Origin: Spirochaetales bacterium
Lineage (GTDB): Bacteria > Spirochaetota > Spirochaetia > JAFGXN01
Reading direction: 5' to 3'
Assembly (NCBI GenBank): GCA_016936615.1
Contig: JAFGXN010000050.1
Coordinates: 1-61,199, forward strand
Length of the DNA: 61,199 nt
Position 1 is the first letter of the stretch; each line of letters begins with the position of its first letter. Positions 41,641-50,039 of the stretch are shown here, piece after piece. The notes beneath the pieces were generated by a model that saw only the letters and a list, made by a program, of their open reading frames with translations, was not told the DNA's origin and ran no database searches. The position numbers and the translations under genes were made by a program.

Positions 41641-43830
41641 TCAATCTCGCTTCTGTATCAAATAACACTGGTGGATCTTCTGGTCGCGCTGAAAATCCAT
41701 ATCTATCGTCTTCGGCGTTATATCAACAATCTGCAGATCCGCCAATGATTCATAATCCATCTTAAATTTCCTGAAATTGTTAGAAAAAATCAGCAATCCA
41801 CCATCTCTTAGCTTCGATGTAGCTGCCTTAATAATCCTCACATGGTCATTCTGCACATCGAAGACCTTATTCTCACTCTTAGTATTTGAGAAAGTTGGCG
41901 GATCTAGAAAAATCAGATCAAACCTATCCGTAGTCATCCCAAGAAAATCAAAACAATCCTCCTGAACATAACGATGGAAAGAATCATCAAACCCATTCTC
42001 TACCATATTCTCCTTAGCCCAATTCAGATAGGTCCTAGACTTATCGACAGTGACAGTAACCGCACCTTCACTTGCAGCATATAGAGAAGCACTTCCAGTA
42101 TATGCAAATAGGTTCAGGAAGAAACACTTCTCCCCCGCCTCTTTAATCTCACGAGCAAATTCCCGAATAATATTTCGCGCAGGTCTATGATCTAAAAATA
42201 TCCCGGTATCCAGAAAATCATCAAAGTTTACCTTAAATTTTAGACCACCCTCTTCTATCCAGAAAAACTCATTCTTCAAATCACGTCGAACATATTGGCT
42301 GCGACCTTTCTGTTTAGCCCTAGTCCGAAGATGAACCACAGGATTATCATCAGCAAATACAACTCCGACACTTCGGATAATCTCAGAAAGCCTCCGAGAC
42401 CTCTTCGACTCAGGAATCTCGGCAGGTGGCGCATACTCACTGACAACAAGATGCATCTGCCCATCTAAAGTCTTATAGACCTCGATAAAGGCAGAGTATT
42501 CAGGAAGATCAGCATCATAACAACGGAAGCAAGAGATCTGATTCTTTGTCCGCCACTTTTTCATCTGCTTTAAATTCTTCTTAATACGATTTATCAACAT
42601 CTCCATTCCCGGAGAGATAGCATCCTCGTCGTGAGGCTTTCTAGCCTTTTCAGAATCAATCCTGAAATTCGCGAGAAAACACTCGATTTTACCATTAAGC
42701 AAATTATTCACCTTATGTGGCTTGAGCGGAATCTTCATCGACAACTCATGATTTGAAGTGAAGAGAGAGAAGCCCCAACCATCAAAGCCAGCAACAACCT
42801 GCTGCCCAAGATTAGAGTAGAGCTGAAGAGCTGAATCGAAGTCAGAAAGTCTCTCACCATACGGCGGATTAGTCACAATCAGACCTTGCGGTAACTCTTT
42901 ACCTATTTTTTTAGAAAAAAATTCAGATGAAACTGTTGTAGCATCAGCAACAAAGAGCCTCACATAATCACTGACCCCAGCCCTCTCCAAATTTTTCCTG
43001 GCAATATCAATAGCCCTCGGATCGAGATCAGAACCAATGAAGATATTATCAGTATAACTGATTAATGCCTCGACCTCGCCTCTAATCTGCCTATAGATCT
43101 CAGCAGAATGATCCTTCCAGAACTCGAAGCCAAAATGTGAACGCAACAGACCTGGCCCATAACCAAATGCAATCAGCGCAGCTTCTACAAGCAAGGTACC
43201 ACTACCACAGAACATGTCGATAAAAGTTCCCCCATCCTTGCATAACTCCTTCCAATTAGCACGATAGAGAAGTGCTGCAGCAAGGGTCTCCTTCAAAGGC
43301 GCCTCAACTGCCTGCTGCCTATAACCTCGCTGGTGAAGACTACCACCAGAAAGATCTATGTAGAACCCAGCAGTAGTTCGAAGAAGCTCAAAGAAGAGTC
43401 TTATATCTGGAGAATCTTTATCGATATCAGGTCTAGTTCCCTCTTTTTCCCTAAAAAAATCACAAATCGCATCTTTAACCTTCATTACTGCAAAGTTAGT
43501 ATTATTAAAGCCTACCCGGCTCACATCAAAGACATTACTCCCGATTAAGATTGAATTTTTTCCAGAAAAAAACCTCCCCCAATCTATGCTGTGCGCTTGA
43601 CGATACAGATCATCTGGATCTGCGACCTCACACTCGTGAATCTTCAGTAACAAGCGATTCACCACGCGAGCAGAGAGACAGACCCGGTAGACAACACTCA
43701 GATCCCCCTCAAACTCAACTCTCCCTTTCGAAGACCTGATAAAATTCCCGCCGCAACCAGCGATCTCACTTTGAACAATATCCTCTGTATTTGCTGGACA
43801 CAACGCTAACAATCTATATAAATCTGACAT
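41641..43830 (-). CDS. rlmL: bifunctional 23S rRNA methyltransferase RlmKL (THUMP plus two SAM-MTase domains)
   Basis: About 729 aa. N-terminal THUMP-like region, FCGSGTLLVEAA, VTNPPYGERL, and a second MTase (LFAYTGSASLYAA...FLDPPTFS). Start preferred at ATG 43830 (GGGAGAG upstream). The track ORF starts at 43842. Confidence 0.85.
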   Translation of the reverse strand: MSDLYRLLALCPANTEDIVQSEIAGCGGNFIRSSKGRVEFEGDLSVVYRVCLSARVVNRLLLKIHECEVADPDDLYRQAHSIDWGRFFSGKNSILIGSNVFDVSRVGFNNTNFAVMKVKDAICDFFREKEGTRPDIDKDSPDIRLFFELLRTTAGFYIDLSGGSLHQRGYRQQAVEAPLKETLAAALLYRANWKELCKDGGTFIDMFCGSGTLLVEAALIAFGYGPGLLRSHFGFEFWKDHSAEIYRQIRGEVEALISYTDNIFIGSDLDPRAIDIARKNLERAGVSDYVRLFVADATTVSSEFFSKKIGKELPQGLIVTNPPYGERLSDFDSALQLYSNLGQQVVAGFDGWGFSLFTSNHELSMKIPLKPHKVNNLLNGKIECFLANFRIDSEKARKPHDEDAISPGMEMLINRIKKNLKQMKKWRTKNQISCFRCYDADLPEYSAFIEVYKTLDGQMHLVVSEYAPPAEIPESKRSRRLSEIIRSVGVVFADDNPVVHLRTRAKQKGRSQYVRRDLKNEFFWIEEGGLKFKVNFDDFLDTGIFLDHRPARNIIREFAREIKEAGEKCFFLNLFAYTGSASLYAASEGAVTVTVDKSRTYLNWAKENMVENGFDDSFHRYVQEDCFDFLGMTTDRFDLIFLDPPTFSNTKSENKVFDVQNDHVRIIKAATSKLRDGGLLIFSNNFRKFKMDYESLADLQIVDITPKTIDMDFQRDQKIHQCYLIQKRD

Positions 43831-43943
43831 ATTCTCTCCCATCTCATCTCCACTCCGGAGTCTCCAATAAATCTACTACACTAACCAGGAAAAATCAACT
43901 CCAGCCAGCTACCCAATCCCCCGATAATATGGTAATCTTAATC

Positions 43944-44759
43944 ATGTTATATAACCTACACACACACTCAAACCTATCAGACGGACGGAACTCGCTTGAG
44001 CAGATAGTTGAAACTGCGGCAAATGAGAATATCGAAATCTTGGGAATCTCTGACCACAGCACTGTGCCTTTCCCAACAGAGTGGAATATGAAGGATGAAA
44101 ACGTGGAAGTTTATCTGAAGGAGATTGAGAGACTTCGCGAAATCTATCCATCCGTAAAAATTCTTGCAGGAATCGAGGGAGATTTTATTCCAGGAGTACA
44201 GAATTTTTCCCAAATGAGCGATTTCGAATATATAATTGGAAGTGTCCACTATGCGTTGACAGATGGAGAGCCAGAGAGCTTCGACTCTTCGCCAGATGCA
44301 TTTGACAAAATCGTGAAGAATTTCTATAACAACGATGTCCAGAAATTCATAAAATACTACTACGATGCCCTGCTTCAGATGGTTGATTCTTGCCGATTCG
44401 ATATCGTAGGACACCTTGACCTTGTCAAGAAATTCAATACGGTGCGGCCATCCTTCGACGAGCAGGCAAAGGCTTACAAATCAAAGGTCTACGAGGTTCT
44501 CGAACTTATCAAGGAATGCAGCCTCACTGTCGAATTGAACACTGGGGGGATTACTCGCAACCTGATGAAAGATCCTTATCCTTCTTTTGATTTTATCAAG
44601 CTAGCACGACAGATGGATATCCCGATCTGCATTAATTCAGACTCTCACGCAGCAAATACCCTGCTAAAGAACAGGGAAATAGCAGTCGAGGCAGCCTTGA
44701 GTGCTGGCTACAAGTATGAATACATCCCTGTAATTGATAAATTTCAGGATCTCAAATAA
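43944..44759 (+). CDS. PHP-family phosphoesterase (histidinol-phosphatase HisJ-like)
   Basis: MLYNLHTHSNLSDG, GISDHS, HLD and SDSH metal motifs. Start taken at ATG 43944, with ATG 43929 as an alternative. The track ORF (43791) overlaps the divergent rlmKL start. Confidence 0.7.
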   Translation: MLYNLHTHSNLSDGRNSLEQIVETAANENIEILGISDHSTVPFPTEWNMKDENVEVYLKEIERLREIYPSVKILAGIEGDFIPGVQNFSQMSDFEYIIGSVHYALTDGEPESFDSSPDAFDKIVKNFYNNDVQKFIKYYYDALLQMVDSCRFDIVGHLDLVKKFNTVRPSFDEQAKAYKSKVYEVLELIKECSLTVELNTGGITRNLMKDPYPSFDFIKLARQMDIPICINSDSHAANTLLKNREIAVEAALSAGYKYEYIPVIDKFQDLK

Positions 44760-44770
44760 TTTTACATATG

Positions 44771-44803
44771 AAAAACCCAAGGCAGATAACCTTGGGCTTA
44801 TTT
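44771..44803. terminator. possible bidirectional terminator between the PHP gene and the FAD oxidase gene
   Basis: A5, stem cccaagg / ccttggg, 7-nt loop, then cttattt. Confidence 0.4.
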
Positions 44804-44841: not shown

Positions 44842-46593
44842 CTATTTATGCTTCTTCCAATCAATTCTCCAGTTATGGTCTTTCAACTCTGATTTATCGT
44901 AATCCATTCCCATGTTTCCACCTGGATTCATAATATTATTAGGGTCAAAGTATTGCTTAAGAGCCTTGATTGCTCCCATCTCAGTATCTCCAAGATGTTC
45001 CTGCATCCATGGACCAATCATTCGACCTACACCGTGGTGGTGAGACAACGAACCGCCATACTTATTTATCGCGTCAAAGATTCCTGTCTGAAACTCCTGA
45101 TACTCTTTCATATCATTCATCTTACAGAAAAAGATAAAATAAAGATTTGTTCCACCTGGATAGAAGTGTGAAGCATGTGTTAGACAGCCAGTATTTGGTC
45201 TAGACTTAACATACTCTCTAACTCCCTTGTGAAGTGCATGAAGATTATCCCAAGTAACGCCTGATTCAGTTGTATCTAGAATCATTGCGTAGTCGTTCAA
45301 ATCCTCTCGCAAATATGGATCCTTGTATCGGCCGTGTTCCCAACTTGATAGAGCATATTTAGTCAAAGACATTCCGCCGTGTTTTCGGCAGATTCTCTTT
45401 GCTTTTCGTCTTACATTCTTTGCAAAGCCTTTCTCACCACAAGTTCTTGCTAGGAATAGGCATCTAGTTCCATCTTTGTAACCAAACACCTTCATTATAG
45501 GATCAAGAGGAGTTCCCGCAACCCCATACAATCTAAGACCCATAGCAGTCTCTTCTGGATCTGAAATTCTCATTACTCCAGGAAAACCGAACTCACCCTG
45601 AGAGATCTCTCGACAAGCATTAACTCCATCTTCCCAAGTTCTAAATACATAAGAGAAGCCATACTTAGTCTCTGGACTATGATAGAAAATCTTCATTGTC
45701 AATGCAGTGATAACACCATAACAGCCCTCACTACCCTTGATCATATCAAGAACCTTAGGACCTGATGCTGTTGCTGGATAGACATGAGTCTGAATAACTC
45801 CTTTTGGAGAGACAAATTCAACTCCCATCACGATATCACAAGCATCTCCGAAGTATGAAGACTCCTGACCAGAACCAAGTGCTGCAACCCAACCACCGAC
45901 AGAAGAGTACTCGAATGACTGTGGAAAATGTCCACAAGTATAGTTTTTCTTAGTCTTGTGACTCTTCTTTGAATTGTTCAATACTGCCTCATAAGCAGGA
46001 CCCATCATACCAGATTGAACAGTTGCAGTCTTGTTAAGCTCATTTATCTCAAGAACCTTGTTCATATGGGTGTTAAGAACAAGAGTAACTCCACCCTTAG
46101 TTGGTCTAAATCCGAAGTTTACTGAAGATCCACCACCAAATGTATAGAGTGGGATCTTATGATCATTACAATATTTTACAATATCACTGACATCCTGAGT
46201 ATGTCTTGGATGTACAACAAGATCAGTTACATCCCCGATTAGATTCTGCCTAAGCTCAAGAGCCTCTTCCATTGTCTTTCCAGTAGAGTAGAACAATCTA
46301 TCATAGTCTGACAAAGAGATATTCTCACTGCCAACAATCTTTGTAATCGCCTCTACATGTTTCTTGTCAATCAAAGAGGGCTTGTCTGGAATTGCTACCT
46401 GCTCTCTTCCTTCAAACTCCTTAGTTCTAAAATCATCATCTGTCAAGCCAAACTGATCCTTCATGTACTGATACATCTTTGACTTTGGATGTTTGAACCC
46501 ATCTGGGGCTCCCCATTTAAAAACTGATCTGTATGATCCCTTCTCTGGCACTTTCTCAGACCAATCTGGTTGATAACCTTTACTTTTACCCAT
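44842..46593 (-). CDS. FAD-linked oxidase, alkyl-dihydroxyacetonephosphate synthase (AGPS)-like
   Basis: 583 aa with FAD_binding_4-type N-terminal half. C-terminal LSHHHGVGRMIGPWMQEHLG...KQYFDPNNIMNPG resembles the HHH loop and tail of AGPS. N-terminal FKWGAPDGFKHP resembles the AGPS WNGWG region. SD AGGAGAG upstream. Confidence 0.6.
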   Translation of the reverse strand: MGKSKGYQPDWSEKVPEKGSYRSVFKWGAPDGFKHPKSKMYQYMKDQFGLTDDDFRTKEFEGREQVAIPDKPSLIDKKHVEAITKIVGSENISLSDYDRLFYSTGKTMEEALELRQNLIGDVTDLVVHPRHTQDVSDIVKYCNDHKIPLYTFGGGSSVNFGFRPTKGGVTLVLNTHMNKVLEINELNKTATVQSGMMGPAYEAVLNNSKKSHKTKKNYTCGHFPQSFEYSSVGGWVAALGSGQESSYFGDACDIVMGVEFVSPKGVIQTHVYPATASGPKVLDMIKGSEGCYGVITALTMKIFYHSPETKYGFSYVFRTWEDGVNACREISQGEFGFPGVMRISDPEETAMGLRLYGVAGTPLDPIMKVFGYKDGTRCLFLARTCGEKGFAKNVRRKAKRICRKHGGMSLTKYALSSWEHGRYKDPYLREDLNDYAMILDTTESGVTWDNLHALHKGVREYVKSRPNTGCLTHASHFYPGGTNLYFIFFCKMNDMKEYQEFQTGIFDAINKYGGSLSHHHGVGRMIGPWMQEHLGDTEMGAIKALKQYFDPNNIMNPGGNMGMDYDKSELKDHNWRIDWKKHK

Positions 46594-46615
46594 AAATCTC
46601 TCCTATCTATAATTA

Positions 46616-46960
46616 TTATATGTCAGTAGTTGCTATTAAACGAACACCTAACCCAAGTAAATTGTCCGCTACAATATCCCCAACCTTTAACCTACGATCA
46701 ACTTTGATTAAATTTATCTCCCTCATAAAATCAAAGATCTTATCTAAATCCACATCACTCTCAGTCCGAACTGGAAGACGTGGGAAATCATCAAAAACAG
46801 TCGCAACCGTTGTTGTAATTGTACGCACAGGATTAAGCATCTCCTGACGCGCATAATCAATCCCTTTGCGGCACCTATTCCCAGTCACAACAATCTCATC
46901 ACCATCTACCGTAATCTCAAGCTGGCAGCCCTGTGGGCAACTTATACAAACCTTATTCAT
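46616..46960 (-). CDS. DUF1667-domain protein
   Basis: Start at ATG 46960 (MNKVCISCPQGCQLEITVDGDEIVVTGNRCRKG), a Cys-rich N-terminus typical of DUF1667. Overlaps the upstream gene by 8 nt. Confidence 0.7.
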   Translation of the reverse strand: MNKVCISCPQGCQLEITVDGDEIVVTGNRCRKGIDYARQEMLNPVRTITTTVATVFDDFPRLPVRTESDVDLDKIFDFMREINLIKVDRRLKVGDIVADNLLGLGVRLIATTDI

Positions 46961-48221
46961 TGTTAGCCTCCACAAGATTGAAGACCAGAGACCTATCCTT
47001 GTGAACAATCTTCTCTGGCTTGATTATAACTTTTTCCATTTCAGGAGGTCTTAGAACCATGTATTTCTTTGAAAAAACTACATCATCCCCATTCTTCACC
47101 TCAAGACGCGCATTACGACACTCTTTTTTTACCCTAAAATAAAAAATTAAATCCTCACTGCTACAAGGATCTGCAAACTGCGGAACCTTGTATAAGAATT
47201 TGCCATTATCCTCAACAGGGAGAGACTCGCCACGAAGAAGCTCTCCCTTCGCAAATAAAGCAGCAGATCTGCCCGCAATCTCCCCAGACTCTGAGACAAA
47301 GTCAGCCAAATCATTTACATGCAAAGCATTTCCACAAGAGAAGGCGCCATCCAACATTGTGTGCATATTCTGGTCCACATACGGGCCTTTTGTAGAGTTA
47401 TCAAGAACCAGGCCAAGGGTCTCTAGCATATCATTCTCAGGGATAAGTCCAACAGAGAGAATCAAAGAGTCGCAAGGTATATACCGTTGAGTTCCCTCAA
47501 CTATCTTAAAATTGCTATCAATCTGCGCAACTTCAACACCCTCTACCCTCTCCTTTCCGAAGACGCGAGTAACAGTAGTACTCAGATGTAGCGGAATATT
47601 AAAATCCTCAAGACACTGCGCAATATTTCGCGAAAGCCCTGAAGGCTCTGATTTAATCTCATAGACCCCCTCGACCTCAGCACCCTCAAGCACCAACCTA
47701 CGAGCCATAATCAAACCAATATCACCAGAGCCAAGAATAACCGCCCTCTTCGAAGGCATATAGCCCTGGATATTTATAAAAAACTGGGCCTGCCCCGCAG
47801 TCATAACACCTGCAGGTCGCGTTCCATGAATAAAAACCTGCTTTGCAGATCTCTCACGGCAACCCATAGCAAAGACAATAGACTTTGTACCAACACGGGC
47901 GACACCCTTAGAATTCTGAATCTCTAACTCAAAGCCTCTTTCCAACTGCTTAATTTCTCTAACAAAAGAGTTCAAAAAGACCTTCACCCCACACTCTCTC
48001 AACTTCTCAATCTCTTTACAAGCATATTCAGGACCAGTCAACCTCTGGTTAAACCTCTCTAGCCCAAAGCCATCATGAATACACTGCTTAAGAATACCAC
48101 CAAGCCTATCTTCACGCTCTATCAAAAGGGTAGAAGCTCCTGACTCATGACTACTTACCGCAGCAGCAAGCCCTGCAGGCCCTCCACCTATGACAACAAC
48201 ATCATAACTAGCTACAATCAT
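46953..48221 (-). CDS. NAD(P)/FAD-dependent pyridine-nucleotide-disulfide-type oxidoreductase
   Basis: 422 aa with two Rossmann motifs (VVVIGGGPAGLAAA and AVILGSGDIGLIMA). ATGA overlap with the upstream gene. Confidence 0.75.
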   Translation of the reverse strand: MIVASYDVVVIGGGPAGLAAAVSSHESGASTLLIEREDRLGGILKQCIHDGFGLERFNQRLTGPEYACKEIEKLRECGVKVFLNSFVREIKQLERGFELEIQNSKGVARVGTKSIVFAMGCRERSAKQVFIHGTRPAGVMTAGQAQFFINIQGYMPSKRAVILGSGDIGLIMARRLVLEGAEVEGVYEIKSEPSGLSRNIAQCLEDFNIPLHLSTTVTRVFGKERVEGVEVAQIDSNFKIVEGTQRYIPCDSLILSVGLIPENDMLETLGLVLDNSTKGPYVDQNMHTMLDGAFSCGNALHVNDLADFVSESGEIAGRSAALFAKGELLRGESLPVEDNGKFLYKVPQFADPCSSEDLIFYFRVKKECRNARLEVKNGDDVVFSKKYMVLRPPEMEKVIIKPEKIVHKDRSLVFNLVEANNE

Positions 48222-49972
48222 TGTACATCCTCCTGAGCCGAAGTTTTAACATATGAGTAATCTATATCACCTTTTGTCTTTTTCAATATAACAGGAGATC
48301 TTCCACCTTTCTTAGTAATAGCCTCGACAGGCAAGCCAGTCTCCTCTTGAATTATCTGAAAAATCCTTGGAGTACAGAACCCACCATGACACCGACCAGT
48401 TATTGCTCCAGTTCGACGCTTGATACTGTCAAGAGAGACTGGAACAAGTGGAGATCTAAATACATCACGGATTTCACCCTCTGAAATCTGTTCACATCTA
48501 CAAACAATTGTTCCATATTTAGGGTTCTTCTTGACTAACTCCTCTAAATGCTTAGCATCCATAGAACGAGTCTCAGGAATAGAAAATTTTCTCTTCTCAG
48601 AGTAATTAGGATTCTTATCAATGACCATCTTCGAAGAGAGTATATCCAAAGACATATTCACTACATCCTCAGCAATTGCAGGTGCACTAGCAAGTCCAGG
48701 TGATTGAATTCCTGCTACATGGATAAAATTTCTAACCCTCTTTGACTTCTCAATTATAAAATCTTCTTTGTATGTGCAAGCTCTCACCCCTGCAAAGAAA
48801 GTGATAATATCAGATACTTCAATTTTTTTATTTAGCTTAAAATGGTTAGAGAGCTGAGAAATATCAACACTCGAAGTAGAATAATCCTCTCTCTCCACGA
48901 CCTCATGCGCAGTAGGACCAATCAAAACATTTCCTTCGATTGTCTTAATCAAACCTCCGCCCTTAGTCTTTGTCTTTGCAAGATTAAAACTAGGTCTTGC
49001 CATAATATGATTCAAAAACTGAGCCTTCTTTCTATCAACAATAACATCTACACCTTTTCTAAAATGCAACGAGTAGAATTTATCTCCCGCAAACTCTGCT
49101 ATCTTATCCGCCCACGCACCAGCAGAATTTATAACCAACCCAGCCTTGATACTACCCTTATTCGTAGCAACTGAATAAATACCATCTCCATCCTTCTCAA
49201 AACCAGAGACCAAAGTGTCGAGCGAGACCTTAACCCCATTTTCAACCGCATGCTCAGCTAGTGCAACAACAAGCCGATAAGGCGAAAGCTGACCAGTTGT
49301 AGGCATATAAAAAGCACCATATTGTTTGCCCTCGATGTAAGGCTCCTTTCTCATCAGTGATTTCCTGCTGATATATCGCGTACCCTTTACACCATTAGCC
49401 CGTGCTCTCATTTTAAATATAGGAAGTAACAAACGCAAAGCAGAAGATCCAAAAACGATCAAAGATCCAGGTCTAAAAAAAGGAACATTCAAATCTTCAC
49501 AAAGCTTAGTGTATGCCTCGTTTCCTCGCACATTATACTTAGCCTTCAAACTCCCGGGTTTAGCTGCAATACCAGGATGAATAACCCCATCATTTCTCGA
49601 AGATGCATGCATCCCCACATCTGATTCCTTCTCAAGAAGCAAAACAGATAAATTGTATGCTGATAATTTACTTGCAATAGAACAACCGATAACTCCTGCT
49701 CCGATAATAACTACATCATAGATACTACCATTTAGAGACTCATCAGTTAGCGAAGCCTTAGGAAAAGGCTCTTCTTTTAGATTTTTTATTGAAACATTAC
49801 TTATAACCTGATTAAACGGGAACCCAGCAGCGATATAACCTGCTTCAAGTTTTTGATCTAAAGAATCAACCTCACCCTCTAATAAGACACTCTCATTAAC
49901 CAAAGATACTTTAATATTTGCAAAACCTTTTTTAATTAATTTCTTTTCTAAAGATTGGAGAAACTTTTGCAC
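48218..49972 (-). CDS. FAD-dependent oxidoreductase, glycerol-3-phosphate dehydrogenase/oxidase-like, with BFD-like [2Fe-2S] motif and an extra N-terminal domain
   Basis: 584 aa. GTG start with AGGAGG 5 nt upstream. DAO-type Rossmann motif DVVIIGAGVIGCSIA at about residue 86, and a BFD-like segment CRCEQISEGEI. Confidence 0.7.
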   Translation of the reverse strand: MQKFLQSLEKKLIKKGFANIKVSLVNESVLLEGEVDSLDQKLEAGYIAAGFPFNQVISNVSIKNLKEEPFPKASLTDESLNGSIYDVVIIGAGVIGCSIASKLSAYNLSVLLLEKESDVGMHASSRNDGVIHPGIAAKPGSLKAKYNVRGNEAYTKLCEDLNVPFFRPGSLIVFGSSALRLLLPIFKMRARANGVKGTRYISRKSLMRKEPYIEGKQYGAFYMPTTGQLSPYRLVVALAEHAVENGVKVSLDTLVSGFEKDGDGIYSVATNKGSIKAGLVINSAGAWADKIAEFAGDKFYSLHFRKGVDVIVDRKKAQFLNHIMARPSFNLAKTKTKGGGLIKTIEGNVLIGPTAHEVVEREDYSTSSVDISQLSNHFKLNKKIEVSDIITFFAGVRACTYKEDFIIEKSKRVRNFIHVAGIQSPGLASAPAIAEDVVNMSLDILSSKMVIDKNPNYSEKRKFSIPETRSMDAKHLEELVKKNPKYGTIVCRCEQISEGEIRDVFRSPLVPVSLDSIKRRTGAITGRCHGGFCTPRIFQIIQEETGLPVEAITKKGGRSPVILKKTKGDIDYSYVKTSAQEDVQ

Positions 49973-50010: not shown

Positions 50011-50039
50011 ATTTTAGGGTGAGTAATGATAATTGTCAA
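50011..50039 (-). promoter_or_regulatory. candidate sigma70-type promoter of the four-gene flavoenzyme/AGPS-like operon
   Basis: On the minus strand: TTGACA (50039-50034), 17-nt spacer, TAAAAT (50016-50011). Confidence 0.55.

Follow-up and report, generated by a model that had tools for sequence, protein, structure and literature searches.

Why should an enzyme resembling alkyl-DHAP synthase (AGPS) be encoded at the end of an operon with a glycerol-3-phosphate (G3P) dehydrogenase-like trio? The locus lies on a 61,199-nucleotide stretch of DNA from a Spirochaetales bacterium, analysed at full length and here called the window, and a first-pass annotation had suggested that the operon may couple DHAP formation to the synthesis of O-alkyl lipids. 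No enzyme other than AGPS is known to make the ether bond in the ether lipids of animals. It works by unusual non-redox flavin chemistry.

An operon of an Fng-type trio and an AGPS-like gene

Four closely spaced genes on the minus strand share a single promoter and a single terminator and form one transcription unit. The sigma-70-like promoter (TTGACA-17-TAAAAT, positions 50011..50039, minus strand) matches the consensus at 11 of 12 positions and is the top-scoring site of its kind within 42-53 kb. It was identified solely by consensus matching, and promoter-like sites taken together occur in the window no more often than in shuffled sequence. The first gene (48218..49972, minus strand) has a GTG start codon with AGGAGG 7 nt 5' of it and encodes an FngA-like FAD dehydrogenase of 584 residues, with an N-terminal BON-like domain, a DAO domain (2.7e-61) and a BFD-like [2Fe-2S] domain (Fer2_BFD, 2.3e-10). 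An ATGA overlap joins it to the gene for an FngB-like flavoprotein of the pyridine-nucleotide-disulfide family (46953..48221, minus strand; 422 residues; Pyr_redox_2, 7.9e-27), whose stop overlaps by 8 nt with the gene for an FngC-like DUF1667 protein (46616..46960, minus strand; 114 residues; 2.4e-26) with a CxxCxxxC...C motif close to its N terminus. For this third gene a longer, TTG-initiated reading frame was rejected; ATG 46960, preceded by GGAGG, is the real start. The last gene (44842..46593, minus strand) encodes the AGPS-family flavoenzyme of 583 residues, here P0001, and its ATG at 46593 follows a 22-nt gap holding AGGAGAG. An intrinsic terminator (44771..44796, minus strand) closes the operon with a hairpin of 7-bp stem and 7-nt loop (44776-44796) and T5 (44771-44775); the hairpin is common to the operon and a convergent PHP-family gene, and is also listed on the plus strand. 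Promoter, junctions (the 8-nt overlap being counted from ATG 46960) and all four gene identities agree with the first-pass annotation. Among the ORFs and domains of the window, no kinase gene was found within the operon.

In subunit composition and gene order the trio matches FngABC of Pyrococcus furiosus, a ferredoxin- and NAD-dependent G3P oxidoreductase (Schut, Poole, and Adams 2026, PMC13689815). This flavin/iron-sulfur enzyme consists of FngA (DAO and BFD [2Fe-2S]), the NAD-reducing subunit FngB (Pyr_redox_2) and the Cys-rich DUF1667 protein FngC, many of its homologues probably use polyol phosphates other than glycerol's, and enzymes of the Fng type could feasibly carry out reductions driven by NADH (PMC13689815). 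The P. furiosus operon includes a glycerol kinase gene, whereas the window operon has none and closes with an AGPS-like gene, of which the FngABC paper makes no mention (PMC13689815); window FngA also has the extra BON-like domain. The FngA-like protein falls short of every G3P-dehydrogenase/oxidase equivalog cut-off (243 versus 460 bits), and its closest solved structure is Mycoplasma GlpO (4x9m, 1e-40).

Relationship of P0001 to AGPS

P0001 contains FAD_binding_4 and FAD-oxidase_C domains and matches the solved structures of Dictyostelium AGPS (2uuu, 2.2e-62) and guinea-pig AGPS (4bby, 1.3e-52). Its best non-AGPS chain in the PDB is a D-lactate dehydrogenase (2e-18), with D-lactate dehydrogenases and glycolate oxidases ranging from 1e-17 to 1e-18, more than 40 orders of magnitude behind the AGPS match. 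The AF2 model (pLDDT 91.8) aligns with 4bby over 576 columns (TM 0.82/0.85; 0.69 versus LDHD), at ∼25% identity to solved AGPS in the structural alignment. Together with a score of 153 bits against the glcD model TIGR00387 (cut-off 568), these far stronger AGPS matches rule out a GlcD or D-lactate dehydrogenase, in line with the earlier argument from a triple-His loop, which reads SHHHGVG in P0001. Pfam and the model alignment indicate that the PCMH/VAO-type FAD-binding domain, the cap and the AGPS N-terminal domain are all kept. The N-terminal domain of AGPS helps to form the lipid tunnel. P0001 carries a distinct N-terminal motif, SYRSIFKWGxPxxFKHP, where AGPS has an RWNGWG/NDSKF-type motif.

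R342, Y485 and H518-H520 of P0001 align to the catalytic Arg, Tyr and HHH residues of AGPS, to which the first-pass annotation had pointed, and all are invariant across 139 homologues, including L045, a true-AGPS-type protein from another genome of the phylum. In the guinea-pig enzyme we take the catalytic Tyr and Arg to be Tyr578 and Arg419; the roles of the AGPS catalytic residues reportedly go back to Nenci et al. 2012. The catalytic histidines have been named as His616/His617 (PMC13019191).

P0001 reaches 182 bits to guinea-pig 4bby and 182-215 bits across solved AGPS, as against 511 bits to guinea-pig AGPS for L045, whose gene adjoins an acyltransferase gene. The two proteins share 26% identity and fall into separate clades (in a tree built without eukaryotic sequences). 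P0001 as an orthologue of eukaryotic or myxobacterial AGPS was rejected on these grounds, and we assign it on sequence to a divergent subfamily of the AGPS family. The earlier placement holds for the family, AGPS and not GlcD/Dld. P0001 shares the three-domain flavoenzyme fold and the catalytic Arg/Tyr/HHH set with AGPS/ADPS (EC 2.5.1.26; 2UUU, 4BBY, Myxococcus MXAN_1676), but the partners differ: FAR and GNPAT there; a dehydrogenase, a kinase and a GntR regulator in the P0001 module.

Gene neighbourhoods and a trio with a BON-like domain

An Fng trio accompanies the AGPS-like gene at 5 of 20 sampled spirochaete loci and at 27 of the 80 loci examined in other species and phyla, a sample that spans Spirochaetota, Desulfobacterota, Clostridia, Chloroflexota, Thermotogae, Actinomycetota and Myxococcales; this recurrence argues that the pairing is not due to chance. 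GlpD-like partners are found at 10/20 and 31/80 loci, respectively, and also in the window's nearest relatives in the tree. The type of dehydrogenase swaps among relatives, and its pairing with the AGPS-like gene persists across phyla. From these neighbourhoods, P0001 is functionally tied to a G3P-dehydrogenase-type enzyme. Since GlpD-type enzymes work oxidatively, we place the dehydrogenase upstream of the AGPS-like step. Frequent neighbours at the 100 loci are a GntR regulator of the FadR/FCD type and an FGGY kinase that is not GlpK: in relatives it scores 148-154 bits against the GlpK model (cut-off 590) and lies nearest to the XylB, AI-2 kinase and gluconokinase models. Kinase and GntR regulator together are what inducible catabolic operons usually contain, and they speak against synthesis. 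No biosynthetic neighbour, transporter, lipase or phospholipase recurs in the homologue neighbourhoods, and neither a DHAP acyltransferase nor a fatty-acyl reductase gene adjoins P0001 or recurs near its homologues.

A related module, PA3026-PA3024 of the Pseudomonas aeruginosa GliR regulon, combines an AGPS-like FAD oxidoreductase with a GlpD homologue and an FGGY kinase; the authors predicted conversion of glycerol to alkylglycerone phosphate, and its deletion gave no phenotype (PMC8151288). The module of this aerobe has a GlpD-type dehydrogenase and an AraC-type regulator, whereas the window dehydrogenase is of the Fng type. We do not know of P. aeruginosa as a maker of ether lipids.

The BON-like domain of window FngA (residues ∼1-63; 49784..49972, minus strand) was recognized from Pfam BON matches in orthologues and from its predicted fold. 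Pfam BON (PF04972) matches 18 of 27 orthologous FngA N termini (best 7.5e-7); the window's own copy, at 24.4 bits, stays below the cut-off of 27. The AF2 model (pLDDT 87) has the order alpha-beta-beta-alpha-beta, and its top fold matches, OsmY, CdsD, YscD, DolP and BonA, are all BON proteins, at borderline Foldseek E values (1e-3 to 4e-2). The BON fold is known from the phospholipid-binding DolP; some BON domains do not bind lipid. The domain is present on AGPS-linked FngA and absent from GlpK-linked and unlinked paralogues. Three genomes (G215, G059, G196) encode two Fng trios each, one BON-less and one BON-bearing, and the BON-bearing trio adjoins the AGPS-like gene in all three. In G196, and likewise in the unrelated genome G130, a GlpK orthologue immediately precedes the BON-less trio; this is not so in G215 or G059. 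Other spirochaetes supplied five BON-less FngA paralogues, a pair of which are GlpK-linked, and window FngA is only 34-39% identical to these. These comparisons set the AGPS-linked Fng trio apart as a paralogue of its own, and an N-terminal BON-like domain marks the AGPS-linked FngA clade.

The host genome is 93.9% complete, and in it we found no fatty-acyl reductase (its PF07993 matches are generic epimerases), no orthologue of the AGPS-linked acyltransferase (the sole match is 26% identical to the L045 neighbour), no PlsA-type (DUF2229) gene, no DAGK-type lipid kinase and no orthologue of the module FGGY kinase, which is also absent from the window. HGD-D has a single match there, a small gene of 333 aa with an unannotated ORF of 253 aa after it. 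The genome also has canonical GlpK and GlpD genes outside this operon, GlpK on another contig, and the window trio is the only Fng trio.

Lipid breakdown, salvage or synthesis

We tentatively propose, at somewhat less than even chances, that the trio oxidizes a 1-O-substituted glycerol-3-phosphate and that the C1-O bond is then exchanged or cleaved by chemistry of the AGPS type. Two enzymes would act one after the other, a specialised glycerol-phosphate dehydrogenase of the FngABC type and the AGPS-like flavoenzyme, with BON-FngABC located at the membrane and using a 1-O-substituted sn-glycerol-3-phosphate (alkyl-, alkenyl- or acyl-lysophosphatidic acid are candidates), not free G3P destined for glycolysis. 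In relatives, phosphorylation of a substituted glycerol by the dedicated FGGY kinase, which is not GlpK, would provide this substrate. Oxidation would yield a 1-O-substituted DHAP, and the AGPS-like step could then follow known AGPS chemistry, with enolisation followed by a flavin-N5 adduct at C1, from which the C1-O substituent is expelled, so that exchange or removal would leave DHAP or acyl-DHAP and an alcohol, aldehyde or acid. The physiological role would be O2-independent breakdown, salvage or remodelling of glycerol ether/ester lipids, not de novo synthesis.

In favour of breakdown or salvage we counted the conserved catalytic residues, the partner swapping, the distinct BON trio, the link of the BON fold to phospholipid-binding DolP, the non-GlpK kinase, the GntR regulator and the lack of recurrent biosynthetic neighbours, the published FngABC biochemistry (PMC13689815), the host's own GlpK and GlpD elsewhere, and the contrasting true AGPS-type L045 with its acyltransferase in the same phylum. 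Against it we counted the PA3026-PA3024 deletion without phenotype, the lack of a kinase in the window, the borderline BON evidence, and the lack of a recurrent transporter, lipase or phospholipase. The known substrates of FGGY kinases are soluble sugars and polyols, not lipids, which makes a small, soluble substrate just as possible. A kinase and a polyol-phosphate dehydrogenase would then deliver the ketose phosphate of a small glycerol derivative or other polyol to the AGPS-like enzyme, which might remove a small C1 substituent or perform an isomerisation or a redox reaction that has nothing to do with lipids. The affinity of the module kinase to sugar and polyol kinases suits such a pathway, as do the FadR/FCD-type regulators, which typically sense small acids, the sub-cut-off scores of the module dehydrogenases against all G3P-dehydrogenase equivalogs, and the non-glycerol polyols predicted by Schut et al. 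for many FngABC homologues (PMC13689815). We nevertheless regard it as rather unlikely, given a BON-like domain that points to membrane or phospholipid contact, an AGPS architecture fully kept, N-terminal domain included, over 576 aligned columns, and neighbourhoods in which no sugar transporter recurs.

De novo synthesis of O-alkyl lipids by a route apart from PlsA/PlsR, in which FngABC would supply DHAP that is acylated before a fatty alcohol replaces the acyl group in the AGPS-like step, ranks below breakdown or salvage and appears improbable to us. It can draw on the fully kept AGPS fold and catalytic residues, on a host without a PlsA-type (DUF2229) match, in which an ether lipid would need another route, on the proposal that distant agps homologues may provide a second bacterial ether-lipid pathway (PMC13159169; PMC8151288), and on the feasibility of NADH-driven Fng reduction (PMC13689815), by which the trio could instead be an alkyl-DHAP reductase. 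However, P0001 belongs to the divergent subfamily (182 bits against 511 for L045), and the search for the pathway partners found neither a fatty-acyl reductase nor the AGPS-linked acyltransferase orthologue in the 93.9%-complete genome. DHAP is moreover a central metabolite that requires no dedicated supply, the partner in other genomes is a quinone-type GlpD-like enzyme unable to act as a reductase, kinase and GntR regulator suit catabolism, and the related P. aeruginosa module occurs in a bacterium not known for ether lipids, where its deletion was without phenotype (PMC8151288). The coupling to O-alkyl lipid synthesis put forward in the first-pass annotation is accordingly not upheld. Looser coupling, with FngABC as an anaerobic G3P:NAD/ferredoxin oxidoreductase for catabolism of glycerol or phospholipid headgroups and an independent role for the AGPS-like enzyme, would fit a host with a single Fng trio and an operon without a kinase, which GlpK elsewhere could feed. 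We consider it very improbable, because the pairing outlasts the dehydrogenase swap across phyla, the AGPS-linked trio is a BON-bearing paralogue coexisting with BON-less trios (2/5 GlpK-linked), and the operon genes overlap or are translationally coupled.

A more specific version of the breakdown proposal, which we regard as doubtful, is that the kinase/G3P-type dehydrogenase/AGPS-like module performs O2-independent ether or vinyl-ether cleavage, with AGPS chemistry reversed on alkyl-DHAP, widespread in sediment and gut anaerobes; BON-FngABC would be a membrane-docked, ferredoxin/NAD-coupled alkyl-lysophosphatidate dehydrogenase. The anaerobic plasmalogen/ether-lipid synthases PlsA/PlsR/Ger are BcrAD/HGD-type enzymes unrelated to the window proteins, the common theme being ether lipids in anaerobes. 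The cleavage of alkylglycerol ethers as known from animals requires O2 and tetrahydrobiopterin, and we know of no settled route for anaerobic ether-lipid degradation in sediments or guts. The divergent AGPS subfamily, with all catalytic residues, occurs in hundreds of anaerobic species. If the module is instead biosynthetic, it would represent a third bacterial ether-lipid pathway. If it breaks or swaps glycerol C1-O bonds, as we propose, it would supply the missing anaerobic route for ether-lipid degradation; the newly described FngABC family would gain a first substrate other than glycerol, and a BON domain in the cytoplasm would acquire a role.

Operon layout and the AGPS-family enzyme

The operon consists of four minus-strand genes in the same direction, preceded by a sigma-70-like site (TTGACA-17-TAAAAT, 50039–50011, minus strand), which at 11/12 matching positions is the best in the region. 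Gene 1 (48218–49972, 584 aa, GTG start with AGGAGG 7 nt upstream) contains the Pfam domains DAO and Fer2_BFD. Gene 2 (46953–48221, 422 aa, Pyr_redox_2) overlaps it at an ATGA, and gene 3 (46616–46960, 114 aa when read from an ATG with GGAGG upstream, DUF1667) has an 8-nt overlap with the gene 2 stop. After a 22-nt gap containing AGGAGAG follows gene 4 (44842–46593, FAD_binding_4 and FAD-oxidase_C), which encodes the 583-aa flavoenzyme P0001. Promoter, junctions and all four domain calls are as described in the first-pass annotation. A hairpin with a T5 tract (44796–44771, minus strand) ends the transcription unit and is common to the operon and a convergent gene for a HisJ/PHP-family histidinol-phosphatase-like protein (43791–44759, plus strand). 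The listed TTG start of the latter precedes the PHP domain by ∼50 codons and the ORF overlaps the RlmKL gene 5′ end by 52 nt, so that the real start probably lies further downstream.

P0001 truly belongs to the AGPS family. Its best matches in a phmmer search of the PDB include AGPS from Dictyostelium (2.2e-62) and guinea pig (1.3e-52), the best non-AGPS chain being a D-lactate dehydrogenase relative (2e-18), and its score against the GlcD model (153 bits) is far under the cut-off of 568. The AlphaFold model (pLDDT 91.8) superimposes on guinea-pig AGPS (PDB ID 4BBY) with TM scores of 0.82/0.85 over 576 columns, compared with 0.69 for LDHD. Search, model and fold thus agree with the earlier assignment as AGPS-like rather than as a glycolate or D-lactate dehydrogenase. 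Arg-342, Tyr-485 and His-518–His-520 align to Arg419, Tyr578 and the HHH loop of AGPS and are invariant across 139 homologues. This fully kept catalytic set argues that P0001 would use AGPS-type chemistry on C1 of a ketone phosphate resembling DHAP.

P0001 is not an orthologue of eukaryotic AGPS. We judged its relation to known AGPS by bit scores to PDB chains; a 2025 preprint finds the phylogenetic signal in AGPS sequences too low. In Spirochaetota, the phylum to which the window's own genome belongs, matches at E ≤ 1e-40 occur in 115 of 301 sampled genomes and form at least three subtypes. One has a eukaryote-like N terminus (RWGFNDSKF) and is exemplified by locus L045 (511 bits to guinea-pig AGPS), where the 5′ end of the gene overlaps the 3′ end of a 224-aa PF01553 acyltransferase gene. 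The Leptospira type (example locus L043) scores 334 bits to the Dictyostelium structure 2UUU. The dehydrogenase-linked P0001 type of the window, with the N-terminal motif SYRSIFKWGxPxxFKHP, reaches 182–215 bits to solved AGPS, and P0001 is 26% identical to the L045 protein. Of these contexts, that of L045 is the one that looks biosynthetic. There (L045:7177–9595, in G033, a ∼1.7-Mb spirochaete genome), the 585-aa AGPS follows an HMG-CoA reductase gene and starts 14 nt before the acyltransferase gene ends; this small-genome spirochaete thus likely has a real bacterial pair of alkyl-DHAP synthase and acyltransferase. One spirochaete family with ∼4-Mb genomes (f17, probably Leptospiraceae; loci L041–L043) has AGPS-family genes in 44 of 45 genomes; they belong to two subtypes and lie near a GlpD-like gene.

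Conserved partners of the AGPS-like gene

Among 20 spirochaete loci, the AGPS-like gene adjoins an Fng trio, the type formed by window genes 1–3, in five and a GlpD-like gene instead in 10; a specific FGGY kinase is present in seven and a GntR regulator in six. We then compared 80 more loci, each from a different species, covering Spirochaetota, Desulfobacterota, Clostridia, Chloroflexota, Thermotogae, Actinomycetota, Myxococcales and others. For metagenomic homologues, genome collections supplied the neighbourhoods. The trio is found in 27, a GlpD/DAO-type gene in 31 and the kinase in 50, and 13 loci, several on short contigs, have none of these. Eight loci share the window's arrangement, in which the trio is directly followed by the AGPS-like gene and the kinase is lacking; they include the locus of Clostridium sediminicola and that of an uncultured Spirochaetales bacterium, at 67% identity the closest relative. 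Clustering of all flanking ORFs returned no other recurrent family, and no repeated transporter, lipase or acyltransferase.

The tree places the AGPS-like protein of the window in a clade (99% support) otherwise made up of proteins with GlpD-like partners. The dehydrogenase type has thus been swapped and the pairing kept, which is strong evidence that dehydrogenase and AGPS-like enzyme share one pathway. Since GlpD-type enzymes operate oxidatively, the dehydrogenase step should come first.

An apparent DUF1667/AGPS-like fusion in genome G110, suggested by 720-aa and 837-aa open frames, was discarded, as the frames differ and the long open frames are a high-GC artefact. We also set aside a FadR_C match on one GntR regulator as a lipid clue, its score about equaling that of the generic FCD domain. 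In genome G298 (L031:6304–8017), two ORFs of 411 and 166 aa make up the GlpD-like gene that precedes the AGPS-like gene and correspond to the N- and C-terminal portions of G3P dehydrogenase models, the result of either a frameshift or an error in assembly.

The FngA paralogue and the module kinase

Window genes 1–3 match FngABC, a heterotrimer in which NAD+ reduction is coupled to the oxidation of both glycerol-3-phosphate and reduced ferredoxin (PMC13689815, October 2026). According to its authors, other polyol phosphates are the probable substrates of many homologues; they mention neither AGPS-like neighbours nor spirochaetes, and the window operon differs from their system by the added AGPS-like gene. 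DUF1667 genes are present in 113 of 301 spirochaete genomes, some of which have two. In three genomes (G215, G059 and G196), the FngA of the second trio aligns to window FngA only from residue ∼84 (34–39% identity), and such a trio lies directly downstream of a GlpK orthologue in two of five loci (G196 and the unrelated G130). In contrast, AGPS-linked FngA aligns from residues 1–20 in 24 of 25 proteins from other phyla and in all five from spirochaetes. Judged by these alignments, AGPS-linked FngA is therefore a distinct paralogue, marked by an ∼85-residue N-terminal extension. The Pfam BON domain matches 18 of 27 orthologous N termini (best 7.5e-7), the window's own copy scoring slightly below the cut-off (24.4 bits). 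The AlphaFold model of the extension (pLDDT 87) has alpha-beta-beta-alpha-beta order, and its top fold matches, with borderline E-values, are OsmY, CdsD, YscD, DolP and BonA. PDB entry 7A2D, by its title, shows phospholipid binding by the BON domain of DolP, and by analogy a BON-like domain on a cytoplasmic flavoenzyme hints at membrane or lipid contact.

The module kinase scores 148–154 bits against the GlpK model (cut-off 590); its nearest model, xylulokinase, is likewise matched under the cut-off, and comparison with the PDB gave no clue to specificity. We found no orthologue in the window's genome (93.9% complete; best match 27% identical). Other contigs of that genome encode a true GlpK (694 bits) as well as a GlpD of the canonical kind (575 aa, with DAO_C), and the module differs from this ordinary glycerol route. 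The genome also encodes a second GlpK-like FGGY kinase (G000:C92:621–3808, locus L067; 440 bits to TIGR01311, cut-off 590), whose neighbour is a convergent gene that weakly matches GDSL lipase; this enzyme is a candidate alternative kinase for substituted glycerols.

Possible roles of the module

A related Pseudomonas aeruginosa operon, PA3026–PA3024, is predicted to convert glycerol to alkylglycerone phosphate, and its deletion gave no phenotype (PMC8151288). Sahonero-Canavesi et al. drew attention to distant bacterial homologues of agps (PMC13159169). Our literature search returned no functional or biochemical study of the AGPS-like/FGGY/GlpD module or of mycobacterial AgpS. To our knowledge, the following are new: the FngA paralogue marked by a BON-like extension, its presence alongside trios without that extension (some of them GlpK-linked), the trio and AGPS-like gene with no kinase, and the contrast with a true AGPS/acyltransferase pair in the same phylum.

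The first-pass annotation had the operon couple DHAP formation to O-alkyl lipid synthesis. Searching the 93.9% complete genome, we found no fatty-acyl reductase (the PF07993 matches are generic epimerases), no DUF2229/PlsA-type gene, no DAGK-type lipid kinase and no orthologue of the L045 acyltransferase; the one HGD-D match, a 333-aa gene with an unannotated 253-aa ORF after it, is small and not PlsA/PlsR-like. With the catalytic residues kept but biosynthetic partners not found in this genome, and DHAP requiring no private supply, de novo ether-lipid synthesis appears improbable. Simple co-transcription of trio and AGPS-like gene is a very improbable account of a pairing that is kept despite the swapped dehydrogenase. 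A non-lipid polyol pathway would suit the FGGY kinase but is rather unlikely.

We tentatively favor a catabolic, salvage or remodelling role for the module. The dehydrogenase would oxidize a 1-O-substituted glycerol-3-phosphate, and the AGPS-like enzyme would then exchange or cleave the C1–O bond of the oxidized product, yielding DHAP. Candidates for the C1 substituent are an alkyl, alkenyl, acyl or small soluble group; the BON-like domain and the AGPS N-terminal domain, which P0001 retains, point toward lipid, and the FGGY kinase toward soluble substrates. We propose these two reactions because the dehydrogenase is a dedicated paralogue, relatives carry a non-GlpK kinase, GntR regulators occur at such loci, and synthesis lacks both its partners and a need for dedicated DHAP.
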